From NCBI GenBank assembly GCA_045649935.1, contig JAZRQQ010000120.1, positions 1 to 24,000 of the forward strand: a DNA stretch of 24,000 bases, given 5' to 3'. Each line of letters begins with the position of its first letter. Position 1 is the first letter of the stretch. The notes below the pieces were generated by a model. That model saw nothing but the letters and a program-made list of their open reading frames with translations. It had not been told where the DNA came from and made no database searches. The stretch is from Acutalibacteraceae bacterium (GTDB lineage: Bacteria; Bacillota; Clostridia; Oscillospirales; Acutalibacteraceae). The position numbers were made by a program, and so were the translations under genes. Shown piece after piece: positions 5,110 to 9,888 of this stretch.

Positions 5110-5844
5110 ATGCGAAAAAGAATAAAGAAAAGGACTTTTTCAGGCGTTGTATGTGAACAGGAAATATACAGCATATCTGACAGAGCAAAGAACGATATAA
5201 CAGCAAAGCCACGCTTAAGATTTAATACCGAAGAAGAGCGAGAAAAGCATAAATTAGGCATATCGAGACGTAACCACGCCCGTCTTGTCAATGAAAACTT
5301 TTCTCCCGGCTCTTTATACAGCACGCTTACCTTCGATAATGAAAACGAGGTACATACCTTTGACGAAGCAAAGCATATCAGAGATTTGTTTGTACGTCGA
5401 TTAAAGTATGCTTGCCCTGATGCCGTTATCTTCATATACCTGGGCAGAGGTAAAAATACACGGCGTATTCATGTACATATGCTTTCTGAGGGCGTATCTG
5501 CAGAGATAATCAATAAACAGTGGACATATGGCTCTATTGTTTCCGTTGAGAATCTGAGAGAGCATAACTTTTATAACGGTGTCGATTATGGCTGTGACTA
5601 TACAGGCCTTGCAAATTATCTCTTTGACCATTGGACACCTGAACAGGGCGGTCACCGATGGAAGCACACACGCAACGCAAGAACGCCCGAAAAGGAAGAT
5701 ATAGCCGAAGTTAAGCGCATATACAGCGAGAAAAGCCCACCGCAAGCCCCTAAAGGTTATAAATTGGTCGAAATCAAGTGTACCAAATACGGATATTTAT
5801 ACTTCAAGTATGTAAAAGAAGTGCAGAAAGTCACGCCCTCATAA
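5110..5844 (+). CDS. rep: HUH-superfamily rolling-circle replication initiator / relaxase-like protein
   Basis: Motif-1-like 'LYSTLTFD', HUH 'RRIHVHMLSEG' and a Tyr-rich motif-3 candidate 'DYTGLANYLFDH', in canonical order and spacing. Confidence 0.6.
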   Translation: MRKRIKKRTFSGVVCEQEIYSISDRAKNDITAKPRLRFNTEEEREKHKLGISRRNHARLVNENFSPGSLYSTLTFDNENEVHTFDEAKHIRDLFVRRLKYACPDAVIFIYLGRGKNTRRIHVHMLSEGVSAEIINKQWTYGSIVSVENLREHNFYNGVDYGCDYTGLANYLFDHWTPEQGGHRWKHTRNARTPEKEDIAEVKRIYSEKSPPQAPKGYKLVEIKCTKYGYLYFKYVKEVQKVTPS

Positions 5845-7538: not shown

Positions 7539-7814
7539 TTATGCCACGCTGAAACGTCGTGTTTCGGTCTGTTTACTGTACTGTTCATATAAATCTCCGT
7601 GCGTCTTTTTGAAAGCTGTTGAGTCAAAACGGCTGCTTGTAACTGTCTTGTAGCGGATTTTGAAGATATCAACGGTCATTTCTTCTTTGCCCTCAGAGGT
7701 CATATGAGCCTTTAATTCATCCTTAATGGCTTCTGCCTCAGCTGTTGCTTCATCAATGAGGGCTTGCAGTTCCTTAAGCTCTCTGATTTTGGTTGTGAGT
7801 TCGTTTGTTGTCAT
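7539..7814 (-). CDS. Hypothetical coiled-coil protein (91 aa) common in Firmicutes phage/ICE modules
   Basis: RBS AAGGAG 8 nt upstream. N-terminal heptad-like 'ELTTKIRELKELQALIDEATAEAEAIKDELK'. No function known to me. Confidence 0.6.
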   Translation of the reverse strand: MTTNELTTKIRELKELQALIDEATAEAEAIKDELKAHMTSEGKEEMTVDIFKIRYKTVTSSRFDSTAFKKTHGDLYEQYSKQTETRRFSVA

Positions 7815-7990
7815 TGGTTTTATACTCCTTTGCTTTATATTCGGTTAAGTGGTGAGGGGCTTTAAGTTATCTACCGTCACATTGAGGGGTTTCTATCAGG
7901 CTTATCCGTTCTCACTCTTATATTGCACTCTTGGTTCAGCTCTCGCTTACTTCGTCTGCCTTTCCTTAACTCTGTGATTACATTATATAC

Positions 7991-8088
7991 CTTGTACAAG
8001 TATAAATCAATAGACAAGATAAACAAACTTGTACAAGTATATTTGTGCATTTTTATACTTGACCAAGTATTGATGTTTATGCTATAAT
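7991..8088. promoter_or_regulatory. Operator palindromes plus divergent promoters
   Basis: CTTGTACAAGTATA at 7991-8004 and 8028-8041 (core palindrome TTGTACAA), with a related palindrome ATACTTGacCAAGTAT at 8055-8070. The + promoter is TTGACC 8059-8064, 18 nt, tgcTATAAT 8081-8088. On the minus strand, TTGATT-17-TATAAT spans the first palindrome. Confidence 0.55.
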
Positions 8089-8150: not shown

Positions 8151-8375
8151 ATGGCTGAAAATACAGGAAAAGCAAGCACAAGAGCTAAAAATAAATATAA
8201 TACCGCCAATTATGATAATCTTAGAATTATCGTCCCCAAGGGCAAAAAAGACATCATCAGAGAATACGCCGCAAGAAAAGGTGAAAGTATAAATGGCTTT
8301 GTAAACCGTGCTATCGATGAAGCTATGCAGGATGAGGGCGAAAAAGAAGCAAAATGCCCTCATAGCGCAACATAA
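8151..8375 (+). CDS. Ribbon-helix-helix (CopG/Arc-type) DNA-binding protein
   Basis: 'LRIIVPKGKKDIIREYAARKGESINGFVNRAIDEAM' fits a beta-strand/helix/helix RHH pattern. RBS GAGGT. Confidence 0.65.
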   Translation: MAENTGKASTRAKNKYNTANYDNLRIIVPKGKKDIIREYAARKGESINGFVNRAIDEAMQDEGEKEAKCPHSAT

Positions 8376-8426
8376 AATATCGTAAAGCAACATAAAATAA
8401 TGCAAAGCAACGTAAAATATCGTAAA
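8367..8426 (+). repeat. Three tandem 20-bp repeats (GCAACATAAAATATCGTAAA-like)
   Basis: Units at 8367-8386, 8387-8406 and 8407-8426. Units 1 and 3 differ at 1 position; unit 2 differs at 4. The array starts in the last codons of the RHH gene and ends 25 bp before a strong promoter. Confidence 0.75.
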
Positions 8427-8451
8427 TATACACAAATTTTCACAAAGCGTG

Positions 8452-8479
8452 TTGACATCGTGTAATTTTCGGATATACT
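8452..8479 (+). promoter_or_regulatory. Promoter for the 8684-9289 gene, giving a ~200-nt leader
   Basis: TTGACA 8452-8457, 16 nt, TATACT 8474-8479. The leader contains an 11-bp hairpin TAGGCACTTCG-ttttt-CGGAGTGCCTA (8635-8661) just before RBS GGAG. Confidence 0.55.
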
Positions 8480-8683
8480 AAAAGTGAAGAGAAAGCCACC
8501 GCTAAATCTTCTCAGTGCCAGTGAAACGTTATGCCTTGCCGAGGTGGTATGCGTTGAGGCTCTTATAGGGTTTGTACATTAAGCCTGTTCTCGGCTATGA
8601 CTTAAAGTCAAAAAAATGTACGGTTTTACAAAGAGTAGGCACTTCGTTTTTCGGAGTGCCTATAATGTTATGATGGAGTTAAA

Positions 8684-9289
8684 ATGAAAGATATAAAAGA
8701 ATGTGCAAAGTTATATAAAACACTGCTAAATAAAGATTACATATTTACTCTTGAGCAGGGAATTAAGTTTAAATTATTCTTTAAAATGGGCAATTTTCAC
8801 CATCTGCTTGGTTTAGGGAAATTAAAAGATATCGAAAATCTAAATTTAAAAAGAAACAAAGCGGAGGATATTTATAAGAAGATATTGAAAGGTGACATAA
8901 AGCCCGATCTAATAGAAAAAAGCTCTTTTTATCAATTAATTAAAGACAGAATTGAAAACTTCCAAGGCATAACGGACCTTCTTGACGCCAATAAATGCAA
9001 AATACTTATCGACTTTGATAAGGAGCTTCTTGAATCAACTAATTTAACTAACACAAAATATATACTCTATAAACATAAAAACGATGGCTATCTTCATCTT
9101 ACTTTGGGCGATATTGGCAAAGGAATTTATCCTGAAACATTTTTCTTTGAAAACAGTAAAAGATACATAAGTGAACAGACGTTATTAGACATTATTGATA
9201 TTGAAATTTTAGACAGAAAAAATATAAAGAAAAGAGCTGTTGAAGTTTATAAAGATATACTCCAAAATGAAAGTTCTTCTGTTGGGTAA
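8684..9289 (+). CDS. Putative PBECR-like (Barnase/EndoU/ColicinE5-D/RelE-fold) nuclease; otherwise hypothetical
   Basis: 201 aa and very AT-rich. The motif 'GNFHHLLGLGKL' after a short N-terminal beta-rich segment resembles my memory of PBECR4-type domains; this is unverified. RBS GGAG. The gene is followed by a strong terminator. Confidence 0.35.
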   Translation: MKDIKECAKLYKTLLNKDYIFTLEQGIKFKLFFKMGNFHHLLGLGKLKDIENLNLKRNKAEDIYKKILKGDIKPDLIEKSSFYQLIKDRIENFQGITDLLDANKCKILIDFDKELLESTNLTNTKYILYKHKNDGYLHLTLGDIGKGIYPETFFFENSKRYISEQTLLDIIDIEILDRKNIKKRAVEVYKDILQNESSSVG

Positions 9290-9304
9290 TTATATTTTTA
9301 TTTT

Positions 9305-9336
9305 ATGAGGGCAAATTCGCCCTCATTTTCTTTTTT
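9305..9336 (+). terminator. Rho-independent terminator built from an inverted pair of the island 8-mer
   Basis: ATGAGGGC 9305-9312 / aaattc / GCCCTCAT 9319-9326, followed by tttcttttttat. Confidence 0.85.
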
Positions 9337-9400
9337 ATACCCTCAGTTATATTGGAACGCAAAATTGTAGAATAATAAACAATATAAGGAGATGATACAA

Positions 9401-9583
9401 ATGGCTAAAAAACAAAAATACACGGTAACATTTCACCTTCAAAAGTCTGACGGTGAGATAGTTCCTTTTGAGAAATTGAGCGACGAGGAAAAAGAAGAGG
9501 CTTTTGCAGGTATGAGAAAAAACTTAAGTGAAACGCTGAGCCGTTATTTCGGACTTCATCCGGAAGAATATGAAAAGTTATAA
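9401..9583 (+). CDS. Small acidic hypothetical protein (60 aa)
   Basis: The start is moved to ATG 9401, with RBS AAGGAG 9386-9391. No family recognised. Confidence 0.5.
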   Translation: MAKKQKYTVTFHLQKSDGEIVPFEKLSDEEKEEAFAGMRKNLSETLSRYFGLHPEEYEKL

Positions 9584-9690: not shown

Positions 9691-9721
9691 TTTTGCACAA
9701 TAAGCGCCAAATAAACGCCAA
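9691..9721. repeat. Right-end arm-type repeats
   Basis: TTTTGCACAA 9691-9700 is the inverted copy of 996-1005. CGCCAAATAAACGCCAA 9705-9721 is a direct copy of 973-989. Confidence 0.6.
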
Positions 9722-9791
9722 ATCACATTTATGAGGGCAAATCATAGAAAAGAGAAAAACCCCTGAAGCCTTATGCTACAAGGGTTTGTGT

Positions 9792-9867
9792 ATGGAGCTG
9801 GAAACGTGACTCGAACACGCGACCTGCGCATTACGAATGCGCTGCTCTACCAACTGAGCTATTCCAG
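9792..9867 (-). tRNA. tRNA-Thr: tRNA-Thr (anticodon CGU), CCA encoded; its 3' 46 nt form attR
   Basis: Hand-folded cloverleaf: acceptor GCTGGAA/TTCCAGC, D arm GCTC/GAGC, anticodon stem GCGCA/TGCGC with loop TTCGTAA, T arm GCGTG/CACGT with loop TTCGAGT, discriminator T, then CCA. Total 76 nt. Confidence 0.93.
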
Positions 9868-9888
9868 CATATTGACTTGTGCTTTGAC

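Follow-up and report, generated by a model that had tools for sequence, protein, structure and literature searches.

A divergent drum-class RNA upstream of a PBECR4-family gene, probably an RNA-controlled toxin module of mobile elements

Organization of the locus

The window analyzed here is a stretch of 24,000 nucleotides from an Acutalibacteraceae bacterium (contig JAZRQQ010000120.1), and it carries an 8.9-kb integrative element in tRNA-Thr, bounded by 46-bp att repeats that were located by repeat search at 804-849 and 9793-9838 (inside tRNA-Thr). The cassette described below is cargo at the attR end of this island, where three open reading frames (ORFs) lie on the forward strand: a 74-aa ORF at 8151-8375, encoding a probable ribbon-helix-helix (RHH, Arc-like) DNA-binding protein; a 201-aa coding sequence at 8684-9289, containing GNFHHLLGLGKL and assigned to the PBECR4 family (Pfam PF18813); and a 60-aa ORF at 9401-9583 (63 aa if the start is 9392). 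These positions, the placement at the att end, and the AT-richness of the segment agree with a first-pass annotation of this DNA. The module has a GC content of 30.8%, while the remainder of the island stands at 37.6% and the host DNA at 41.5%; the low value is driven by the PBECR4 coding sequence (28.2%), whereas the RNA described below has 43.6%. The same annotation had taken the absence of the island word GCCCTCA from this segment as a sign of later acquisition. As evidence of foreign origin the gap does not suffice: at 943 nt it is not unusual on its own, since a Poisson model with 27 sites in 8.35 kb predicts about 1.4 such gaps. The same cassette in a related island (locus L001) also lacks the word. 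An intrinsic terminator identified by a terminator scan at 9305-9326 (forward strand), 3′ of the PBECR4 coding sequence, ends the cassette, and its stem is formed by an inverted pair of GCCCTCA.

The 201-aa protein (pI 8.8) matches PF18813 over residues 3-161 with 80.9 bits (cut-off 27; E = 2e-22), and the earlier PBECR-type call thus holds at the family level; the cut-off is likewise passed by 25 of 27 aligned homologs. Homologs comprise 42 close relatives and 1309 representative clusters, most of them solo single-domain proteins. Residues H40, D49, R89, D110, Y149, E151, and Q165 are invariant in the alignment (A1), and T152 is at least 90% conserved. The active site of PBECR domains consists of a histidine that lies in the N-terminal helix plus a C-terminal threonine or serine (Iyer et al. 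2017, PMC5512222). The AlphaFold2 (AF2) model of the protein (pLDDT 92.1) places H40 in a predicted helix (37-41) and T152 in a strand (148-156), a configuration that matches the PBECR active site and makes these two residues candidates for a catalytic role in what is predicted to be a metal-independent RNase. The secondary-structure order (a helix, then a β-meander) is compatible with a BECR core without proving it. At the level of solved structures, the expected resemblance to Barnase, EndoU, or RelE-type nucleases did not appear: Foldseek of the AF2 model against the PDB gave a best E-value of 0.22 at TM below 0.3 with no nuclease among the matches, and a profile search against PDB sequences retrieved only polyhedrin (E = 0.055). 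Given the missing fold match, the prediction of nuclease activity derives from Pfam membership and the conserved His/Thr pair. A search of BFVD returned one unnamed viral protein (E = 8e-6) and weak matches to polyvalent proteins, while the GenBank phage collection, searched with PBECR4 by tblastn, contained no match. PADLOC defense models matched none of the three proteins of the module, NCBIfam yielded nothing useful for them, and ToxN/AbiQ, CptN, and TenpN were not detected in the 201-aa protein by Pfam or PADLOC. A similarity to DUF3800 (PF12686) lies below threshold (15.4 bits against a cut-off of 21; E = 0.031); weak DUF3800 matches occur in 3 of 27 PBECR4 members, with a best E-value of 0.0042, and extend over most of the domain.

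RHH proteins frequently serve as type II antitoxins, and the three genes stand next to each other on one strand in the window. The first-pass annotation had joined them into a single defense or toxin module, composed of an RHH regulator or antitoxin, a PBECR toxin, and a small acidic protein acting as immunity factor. The 74-aa protein matches phrog_13890 (E = 2.5e-16), and its RHH character draws weak support from the Arc-like repressor family phrog_582 (E = 0.0019), with all Pfam matches below cut-off; a weak RelB-like match (E = 0.071) would suit an antitoxin. By tblastn, an RHH gene was found near PBECR4 in 3 of 83 other loci (L004, L083, and L049), where it lies upstream of PBECR4 genes from different clades, and the 60-aa ORF in none of the 83. 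The latter belongs to phrog_26314 (E = 2.5e-13), a phage family unrelated to PBECR4; the protein is acidic, as had been stated, only mildly (pI 5.64, 12 D/E versus 10 K/R), and its proposed part as immunity or antitoxin partner falls away with its absence from the other loci. Exact 15-nt direct repeats (9302-9316 and 9728-9742) flank this ORF. In L001, the closest relative and a member of the same island family, an HTH gene and a 72-aa ORF replace the RHH gene, with retention of the repeats, promoter, RNA, and PBECR4. The RHH and PBECR4 genes are 308 nt apart, with a separate promoter and a small RNA (sRNA) gene in the spacer, which confirms the earlier remark that this is not a textbook type II toxin-antitoxin layout, and a terminator separates PBECR4 from the 60-aa ORF. 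Moreover, clustering of all flanking ORFs reveals no conserved protein partner of PBECR4. The three-gene module is largely refuted by this co-occurrence analysis and is highly improbable; the RHH gene and the 60-aa ORF are neighbors or unlinked passengers rather than partners in the cassette.

A drum-class RNA gene in front of PBECR4

Three 20-bp direct repeats (GCAACRTAAAATAWYGYAAA) lie on the forward strand at 8367-8426, followed by a degenerate fourth copy at 8427-8446, which substantiates and extends the array seen at first pass. The repeats stand in exact register, with 3 matches found against 0.05 expected by chance, and the array (8367-8446; period 20, 3.0 copies) shows a period-10 sub-structure and abuts the -35 box. 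It may represent phased A-tracts or a regulator-binding array. Among the loci compared, the repeats are kept in L001 and L020 despite the different upstream regulator gene there and are absent from L002 and more distant loci; since only the closest relatives keep them, they are not part of the core cassette. They lie upstream of the promoter and are not co-transcribed with the RNA. The promoter, which had also been proposed previously, is of the sigma-70 type (TTGACA-16-TATACT, forward strand, 8452-8479) with 11 of 12 consensus matches and serves the sRNA/PBECR4 unit; the transcription start site would fall at about 8485-8486. Across homologous loci, the -35 and -10 boxes keep a fixed distance from the RNA.

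On the forward strand, the RNA opens with a 5′-terminal hairpin identified by folding (P0, 8486-8511; GAAGA 8486-8490 paired with TCTTC 8507-8511), and in nearly all of 32 loci examined a 5′ hairpin of varying sequence begins right after the -10 box. The core at 8514-8623, defined on the same strand by a match to the Rfam family RF02958 (drum) and by covariation, comprises the helices P1 (8517-19/8558-60), P2 (8526-35/8546-54), P3 (8569-72/8582-85), and P4 (8598-8601/8607-10) together with the pseudoknots PK1 (8538-41/8592-95) and PK2 (8574-79/8616-21). RF02958 aligns over its full length (model positions 1-112 of 112) at 8516-8624 with 33.0 bits (E = 1.5e-4), a score below the Rfam gathering cut-off of 43 bits, so that the match is seen only in E-value mode. 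At the gathering threshold, neither the window nor any of L001-L014 gives a drum match. The window clade nevertheless aligns column-for-column with the canonical drums of L028, L030, L037, L083, and L021, and the architecture of the motif is present: P1, a long P2, an outer stem around a small hairpin, and conserved single-stranded tracts. The Rfam model overlooks an entire gut clade, and the spread of drum is therefore wider than annotation now indicates.

The evidence for structure is comparative. A single-sequence folding of the leader yields an MFE z-score of -2.84, and covariation is far stronger: 30 of 40 pairs carry compensatory changes, 85.6% of cells are paired compared with 35-44% in slid controls, and none of 500 shuffles reached either the covariation score or the percentage of paired cells. 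Across 51 distinct sequences, every one of the 22 nested pairs shows compensation, and covariation backs seven helices, two of which are pseudoknots. Variable parts of the RNA are stems, loops, and linkers with compensatory changes, and no tandem repeat was found within 8484-8665 by repeat search. Two small ORFs in this region (8484-8582 and 8572-8673), which resemble N-terminal extensions of P0005 and P0006, were dismissed as coding sequences, the likeness being DNA-level conservation of the RNA hairpins. What had been described as a long structured leader is indeed structured; as a 5′ untranslated region the description fails, and its sequence and covariation mark it as a separate sRNA gene of the drum class that carries a 3′ hairpin and putative terminator of its own. 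Within this class it falls in a divergent Acutalibacteraceae/Ruminococcus clade, whose P4 hairpin differs.

A Rep-like protein (rolling-circle Rep, 5110-5844) is encoded on the island, and the method of Weinberg et al. can also find single-stranded DNA motifs (PMC5737381), which raises the question of whether it is single-stranded DNA, rather than RNA, that functions in the structured region, for example by providing this Rep with a single-strand origin. We reject this role and give it next to no credence: the element retains a promoter and an intrinsic terminator of its own and remains tied to PBECR4 in loci that lack this Rep, and many conserved pairs are G-U wobbles on the forward strand only (e.g., UG in 15 of 24 and GU in 12 of 24 sequences).

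Between the core and the gene lies the 3′ hairpin of the sRNA (forward strand, 8636-8662; UAGGCACUUCG-UUUUU-CGGAGUGCCUA, about -18.5 kcal/mol), which was found by folding and covariation and shows compensatory changes in 7 of 9 pairs. In 38 loci the corresponding GC-rich hairpin has a stability of -11 to -23 kcal/mol, and in most homologs a U-rich tail makes it a canonical intrinsic terminator. In the window the tail is AUAAUGUUAUG, and the terminator scan made no call; because the U-tract is broken in this clade, read-through is probably higher in it, and the argument from the RNA:mRNA ratio is weaker here. The ribosome-binding site (RBS) GGAG at 8675-8678 (forward strand) follows about 20 nt past the hairpin and precedes the PBECR4 start at 8684, and the gap from hairpin to RBS is too short for a promoter. 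Promoter, RNA, hairpin, RBS, and gene thus succeed one another on one strand.

Such a layout would also suit a cis-acting leader, that is, a riboswitch or a protein- or RNA-responsive attenuator that sets terminator read-through into PBECR4 without acting directly on the protein. The RNA is always 5′ of the gene and on its strand with the terminator before the RBS, its pseudoknotted core is aptamer-like in complexity, and in the RCd22-AbiF system the terminator lowers toxin expression 17-fold (bioRxiv 10.1101/2025.04.15.648962). An expression platform is, however, not evident, as the linker between core and terminator varies and is not conserved, and complementarity of the core to the two terminator arms does not exceed that to shuffled arms (mean z -0.32 and -0.08; 38 loci). 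Tandem RNA copies in L073 also speak against a leader, and Weinberg et al. regarded a riboswitch role for drum as improbable, since in their set it seldom lies in 5′ UTRs and can stand on either strand and side of the associated gene (PMC5737381). We consider regulation purely in cis unlikely.

Linkage of the RNA to PBECR4 across loci

To follow the RNA beyond the window, we used a covariance model built here (R1), which scores 109.5 bits on the window RNA. A scan of 871 kb on both strands returned 54 matches in 52 of 84 PBECR4 sources; all of them lie on the PBECR4 strand just upstream of PBECR4, most ending 45-65 nt before the start codon, and L073 holds two copies in tandem. Among the remaining 31 loci, 26 share one conserved upstream region and 2 have too little upstream sequence, while nhmmer finds drum matches in 8 (6 of them within the cluster of 26). 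Canonical drum RNAs, scoring above the Rfam cut-off, are located directly upstream of PBECR4 homologs in 7 loci (L021, L028, L030, L083, L036, L037, and the Enterococcus faecium plasmid pAJ10XM1A). Divergence among the RNAs correlates with that among the proteins (Mantel rho 0.61, p = 0.001), and PBECR4 has no conserved partner other than the RNA. Carriers of the cassette include integrative islands, predicted viral contigs, and plasmids, and PBECR4 domains are also found inside polyvalent proteins of conjugative elements (e.g., P0073 and P0078).

In the literature searched, no joint mention of PBECR4 and drum was found. The window locus is a new member of a known, functionally unexplained RNA-protein pairing. 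Relative to the published drum motif (RF02958; Weinberg et al. 2017, PMC5737381), its RNA shares the same helices, the full-length consensus match, the conserved single-stranded GGUU, UGAA, and A-rich tracts, the 3′ hairpin, and the tie to one specific protein family, with canonical drums occupying the identical position upstream of PBECR4. It differs in its score of 33 bits against the cut-off of 43, in its P4 hairpin, and in the U-tract that is broken in the closest relatives; furthermore, in the loci studied here the RNA is always upstream and on the same strand, whereas both orientations are reported in the paper (PMC5737381).

Tight linkage and co-divergence would be expected equally if drum RNA and PBECR4 formed a ribonucleoprotein in which the RNA serves as cofactor, scaffold, guide, or activator, or as a dedicated processing substrate, and not as an inhibitor. 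The complex could then be an RNA-directed or RNA-activated nuclease against host defenses or competing elements, in line with the proposal that invading elements use PBECR domains against host or CRISPR RNAs (Iyer et al., PMC5512222) and with the presence of PBECR4 in polyvalent effector proteins. DUF3800 proteins, to which PBECR4 bears a weak likeness, are found together with retron RNAs, with Cas12a2, and with eleven distinct RNA motifs, and Weinberg et al. suspected a ‘biochemically challenging task’ (PMC5737381). Against this view, the aligned RNAs show no evident variable, guide-like segment, and an arrangement in which a terminator limits the protein relative to the RNA is the typical pattern of toxin control. 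A ribonucleoprotein of this kind appears to us a minority prospect, comparable in weight to the cis-acting leader.

Proposed mechanism and relation to known systems

Since drum RNA directly precedes PBECR4 in dozens of mobile elements, the pair is probably an RNA-controlled toxin module. As a more specific proposal, which we favor tentatively and at somewhat less than even confidence, the functional unit would be a two-component RNA-protein cassette acting as a type III-like toxin-antitoxin system, in which drum RNA controls the predicted RNase PBECR4. We infer for this purpose the RNase activity and toxicity of the protein as well as its binding and neutralization by the RNA. One sigma-70 promoter (8452-8479) would drive an sRNA of about 180 nt, composed of the 5′ hairpin, the drum-class core, and the 3′ hairpin/terminator, and PBECR4 would be transcribed only by read-through of that hairpin, so that copies of the RNA would greatly outnumber the PBECR4 mRNA. 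In its folded form the RNA would bind the PBECR4 RNase and hold it inactive, or would be its preferred substrate. If transcription of the cassette stopped, or if the RNA were degraded or titrated, the more stable nuclease would be freed and could cut cellular or phage RNA; phage infection or loss of the element are possible triggers, and abortive infection or addiction the possible outcomes. The logic would be that of a type III-like toxin-antitoxin with a non-repetitive, pseudoknotted antitoxin.

Some observations count against an antitoxin. The confident AF2 model has no significant match to a solved nuclease (Foldseek against the PDB), and the PBECR4 domains of polyvalent proteins are thought to be injected effectors (Iyer 2017, PMC5512222), which would not need one. 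In the data set of Weinberg et al., a drum RNA may stand on either side of its associated gene and on either strand (PMC5737381), a placement that fits a trans-acting partner and is not specific to an antitoxin.

The closest experimental precedent is the abiF motif (RF03085), another motif of the Weinberg 2017 set, whose RNA RCd22, from the phi027 prophage of Clostridioides difficile, has been shown experimentally to neutralize AbiF by direct binding (bioRxiv 10.1101/2025.04.15.648962). Both systems reside on a mobile element of a Clostridia host and present a SigA promoter, a structured non-coding RNA, a Rho-independent terminator (in the window a hairpin with a broken U-tract), no intervening promoter, an RBS, and the toxin gene, with a transcription start site 168 nt before the ATG in RCd22-AbiF and about 198 nt in the window. 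RCd22 consists of two simple hairpins, compared with the double pseudoknot of the window RNA, and AbiF is an Abi_2/HEPN-like protein rather than PBECR4; neutralization in the window would be by analogy.

Type III toxin-antitoxin systems (ToxIN, CptIN, TenpIN) likewise place an RNA gene upstream of an endoRNase-type gene on the same strand, use a single promoter with a terminator between the genes that sets their ratio (in the window the U-tract is weak), and combine carriage on mobile elements with a role in abortive infection. Their antitoxins are tandem repeats cut by the toxin, whereas the window RNA has no tandem repeats, and their toxins are of the ToxN/AbiQ type, which Pfam does not find in the 201-aa protein.

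A third comparison concerns DUF3800 proteins and their partners (the DUF3800-I to -XI and skipping-rope RNAs and type VII retrons), which also join a small predicted mobile-element nuclease to a structured RNA with a terminator. The weak PBECR4-DUF3800 matches are in line with a relationship suspected in 2017 (PMC5737381), which is not established: DUF3800 has been described as RNase H-like with DE and QxxD motifs, while PBECR4 is assigned to the BECR fold with a His and Thr/Ser site. Polyvalent PBECR proteins (Iyer et al. 2017, PMC5512222) belong to the same Pfam family, and in P0073 and P0078 an N-terminal PBECR4 is fused to ArdC-N, Toprim, metallopeptidase, and LPD25 domains. The window protein is by contrast a solo single-domain protein with a dedicated RNA gene in front, a feature not described for PBECR domains.

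Few orphan bacterial RNAs in the 2017 Breaker-lab catalog match drum in conservation and structural complexity; Weinberg et al. had no obvious functional hypothesis for the DUF3800 motifs and offered none for drum (PMC5737381). In these loci the gene that follows it is identified here as PBECR4, a predicted mobile-element endoRNase, and the pair shares its promoter-RNA-terminator-gene layout with proven RNA-antitoxin systems. A broader proposal, which we advance more speculatively than the cassette model itself, is that drum serves a BECR-fold RNase as dedicated RNA antitoxin or infection-sensing inhibitor. The drum-PBECR4 pair would then form a widespread and new type III-like class of toxin-antitoxin or abortive-infection systems whose antitoxin is non-repetitive and double-pseudoknotted, and the other orphan RNAs of 2017 that bear terminators (DUF3800-I to -XI, skipping-rope) would by the same reasoning be protein-neutralizing as well. 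If this is true, RNA-based toxin control and phage defense would gain both a toxin family and an RNA architecture that are new, which would also explain why small islands of gut Clostridia carry this cargo. The Enterococcus faecium plasmids are a tractable source of drum-PBECR4.

A drum-class RNA gene in front of PBECR4

Every sequence object described by the first-pass annotation for this part of the window was found at the coordinates given there: a 74-aa RHH-like ORF (8151-8375), three 20-bp repeats (8367-8426) followed by a degenerate fourth, a promoter (TTGACA-16-TATACT, 8452-8479), about 200 nt of spacer, a 201-aa ORF carrying GNFHHLLGLGKL (8684-9289), a terminator (9305-9326) and a 60/63-aa ORF ending at 9583. 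The spacer, which had been described as a long structured leader, is indeed structured, but it is not a leader; Rfam matching and covariation identify it as a drum-class sRNA gene. Its core (8516-8624) matches drum (RF02958) across the entire model in an Rfam E-value scan, with 33 bits (E=1.5e-4) against a gathering cut-off of 43 bits.

Even between homologous loci (numbered with the prefix L) whose PBECR4 proteins are only 35-77% identical, the upstream regions can be aligned at the nucleotide level. The alignment runs from a conserved -35/-10 promoter through a variable-sequence 5' hairpin, a conserved core and a variable linker to a GC-rich hairpin, in most loci with a U-tract, followed 10-25 nt on by the RBS and then the start codon. 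The U-tract is broken in the clade of the window, so that read-through may be higher there. A structure of five nested helices and two pseudoknots was drawn by hand and scored on a 24-locus MAFFT alignment, in which 85.6% of cells were paired versus 35-44% with the partners slid, and compensatory changes occurred in 30 of 40 pairs. No shuffle (0/500) equalled the observed covariation score or paired-cell percentage. Support extends to both pseudoknots (8538-41/8592-95 and 8574-79/8616-21), and in a set of 51 distinct sequences every one of the 22 nested pairs has compensatory changes; since many conserved pairs are G-U, the plus strand is the functional one. Judged by sequence comparison, the window RNA is a divergent drum-class sRNA gene and a new member of a known RNA-protein pair, the drum RNA and its link to one specific neighbouring protein having been published in 2017 (Weinberg et al., PMC5737381). 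The Rfam drum model overlooks a gut-Clostridia clade.

Linkage of the RNA to PBECR4 and nature of the protein

Drum RNAs above the Rfam cut-off lie immediately 5' of PBECR4 homologues in seven loci: L021 (45.1 bits), L028 (70.2), L030 (51.4), L083 (50.4), L036 (76.2), L037 (88.1) and L085, the E. faecium plasmid pAJ10XM1A (51.8), where 54 nt separate the drum end from a CDS annotated "PBECR4 domain-containing protein". When the window and 83 loci (871 kb, both strands) were searched with R1, a covariance model of the drum-like RNA made in this analysis, 54 matches were obtained in 52 sources, all upstream of PBECR4 and on its strand, typically with 45-65 nt between the end of the match and the start codon. 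In L073, two tandem copies (5535-5646 and 5730-5839) precede one PBECR4 gene, the second with its own promoter-like sequence and terminator. Among the 31 loci lacking an R1 match, two have no upstream sequence, 26 have one conserved upstream region in common, and eight, six of them inside this 26-locus cluster, give sequence-profile matches to drum. Divergence of the RNA correlates with that of the protein (Mantel rho 0.61, p=0.001), and drum RNA and PBECR4 are therefore inherited as a unit.

Several observations concern individual loci. On L085 (343-3007), drum-PBECR4 lies directly 3' of a DUF6414 gene and an AAA ATPase gene, with a recombinase adjacent, and the same PBECR4 occurs on about ten Enterococcus plasmids; L084 encodes a longer PBECR4 protein between IS1251 and ISEf1, without a drum RNA. 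In L023 (Lachnospiraceae), a sub-threshold Clostridiales-1 RNA match (5575-5729; 29.7 bits, cut-off 48, E=0.016) lies just 5' of the drum-like element and PBECR4. The drum region is also mis-annotated as coding in databases: the gene calls of some homologues (P0005, P0006) begin too far 5', inside the 3' hairpin, yielding false N-terminal extensions such as GTSYYFGVPIFL.

The suggestion that the 201-aa protein is PBECR-like was borne out by PF18813 (PBECR4; 80.9 bits, E=2e-22, cut-off 27), and on this sequence evidence its family membership is solid. It has 42 close homologues, and a profile search yielded 1309 representative clusters. Almost all of these are stand-alone proteins 180-200 aa long; in a few, PBECR4 forms the N-terminal domain of a conjugative-element polyvalent protein and is joined to ArdC-N, Toprim, metallopeptidase or LPD25 domains, in agreement with the account of Iyer et al. 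2017 (PMC5512222). H40, D49, R89, D110, Y149, E151 and Q165 are invariant among the homologues and T152 is nearly so. In a confident AF2 model (pLDDT 92.1), H40 belongs to a helix and T152 to a strand, an arrangement that fits the His plus Thr/Ser site by which PBECR domains were defined (PMC5512222). The fold match to solved nucleases proposed as a check was not obtained: a Foldseek comparison of the model with solved structures returned no resembling fold (best E-value 0.22), and a sequence-profile search of the PDB with PBECR4 found no relative. "Nuclease" is therefore a family-level prediction. PBECR4 was introduced in 2017 as a predicted RNase (PMC5512222). PBECR4 proteins also give weak, sub-threshold DUF3800 matches, which recall a relationship suspected by Weinberg et al. 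(PMC5737381) and do not establish it.

Possible action of the RNA on PBECR4

The only promoter available for transcription of PBECR4 is that of the RNA, via read-through of the 3' hairpin. This architecture of one promoter, RNA, hairpin and gene is that of type III toxin-antitoxin loci and of RCd22-AbiF from C. difficile, whose RNA, likewise taken from the 2017 motif catalogue, is followed by a terminator, without a second promoter, and neutralises its toxin, in cis as well as in trans, by binding it directly (bioRxiv 10.1101/2025.04.15.648962). By analogy with this common layout, we favour a model in which the drum RNA would bind and restrain the predicted PBECR4 RNase, which would be freed upon infection or loss of the element. 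The locus departs from classical type III systems in having neither a repeat array nor a ToxN-type toxin. A role of the RNA as a riboswitch or attenuator is weakened, as core-terminator complementarity was not found in 38 loci and Weinberg et al. argued against a riboswitch role (PMC5737381). That the RNA instead serves as a positive cofactor or guide of PBECR4 is a possible alternative, and the offensive role that has been suggested for PBECR domains speaks for it (PMC5512222).

For the related DUF3800 motifs, "no specific hypothesis" was obvious to Weinberg et al., and none was offered for drum (PMC5737381). The literature searched, a scope outside which lies the 2017 supplement naming the drum-associated protein, contains no mention of PBECR4 together with drum and no treatment of drum as an antitoxin. 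The value of the window instance lies in a testable hypothesis on drum-PBECR4 and in revealing the clade overlooked by the Rfam model.

The integrative element and its exchangeable parts

The window DNA is Clostridia-type, and the cassette lies at the right end of an integrative element of ~8.9 kb, whose attL (804-849) and attR (9793-9838) are defined by 46-bp direct repeats at its borders; the right-hand copy coincides with the 3' part of a minus-strand tRNA-Thr(CGU) gene (9793-9868). The element encodes a sigma factor, a tyrosine integrase, an HTH protein, a rolling-circle Rep-like protein and an AntA/KilAC antirepressor.

The proposed grouping of PBECR4 with two small proteins did not hold, as an RHH-like gene occurs near PBECR4 in 3/83 loci and the 60-aa ORF in 0/83. 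Clustering of all ORFs within 2.5 kb of PBECR4 revealed no conserved protein neighbour, and the biggest "clusters" were spurious ORFs overlying the conserved RNA. L001, which carries an island of the same family (Rep 87% and integrase 90% identical), keeps the 20-bp repeats, promoter, RNA and PBECR4, has an HTH gene and a 72-aa ORF in place of the RHH gene, and lacks the 60-aa ORF between PBECR4 and the tRNA. The 60-aa ORF, a member of phage family phrog_26314, is bracketed by exact 15-nt direct repeats, TTTATGAGGGCAAAT (9302-9316 and 9728-9742), which include the island word GCCCTCA; it resembles a small cassette that was inserted, or exchanged, at sites carrying this motif. The 20-bp repeats are limited to the window, L001 and L020, and are therefore a clade-specific feature upstream of the promoter; their period-10 A-tract sub-structure suggests curved DNA or a binding array.

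GCCCTCA, usually as GCCCTCAT/G, has 27 copies in the window, counting both strands, versus 1.6 expected, and all of them fall within the island, between 1386 and 9738. The related island of L001 has 20 copies in 6.8 kb, and the word is absent from other islands with the same cassette (L002, L021). Several copies lie at gene ends or form inverted pairs or hairpins (4912/4939, 8333/8356, 9306/9319), and the word may serve as a site for recombination, binding or modification. The stretch free of it had been considered special; its 943 nt fit the Poisson expectation of ~1.4 such gaps. The AT-richness of the segment was confirmed (30.8% GC vs 37.6% in the remainder of the island) and arises because the PBECR4 CDS has 28.2% GC; the spacer RNA has 43.6%.

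Short AAACGCCAA-type repeats just inside both island ends (~955-1000 and 9699-9723) may be arm-type binding sites for integrase or excisionase. A palindromic box, (C/A)CTTGTACAAGTAT, is present three times at 7990-8070, overlapping the RHH promoter in the divergent promoter region between a minus-strand ORF (7539-7814) and the RHH gene; the three boxes probably act as operators in the switch region of the island, and L001 has similar TGTACA boxes. At 169-243, a Gut-1 RNA (RF01706, 55.8 bits, above cut-off) is followed directly 3' by a gene for a 23S rRNA intervening-sequence protein (355-726), which is another orphan RNA-gene pairing.
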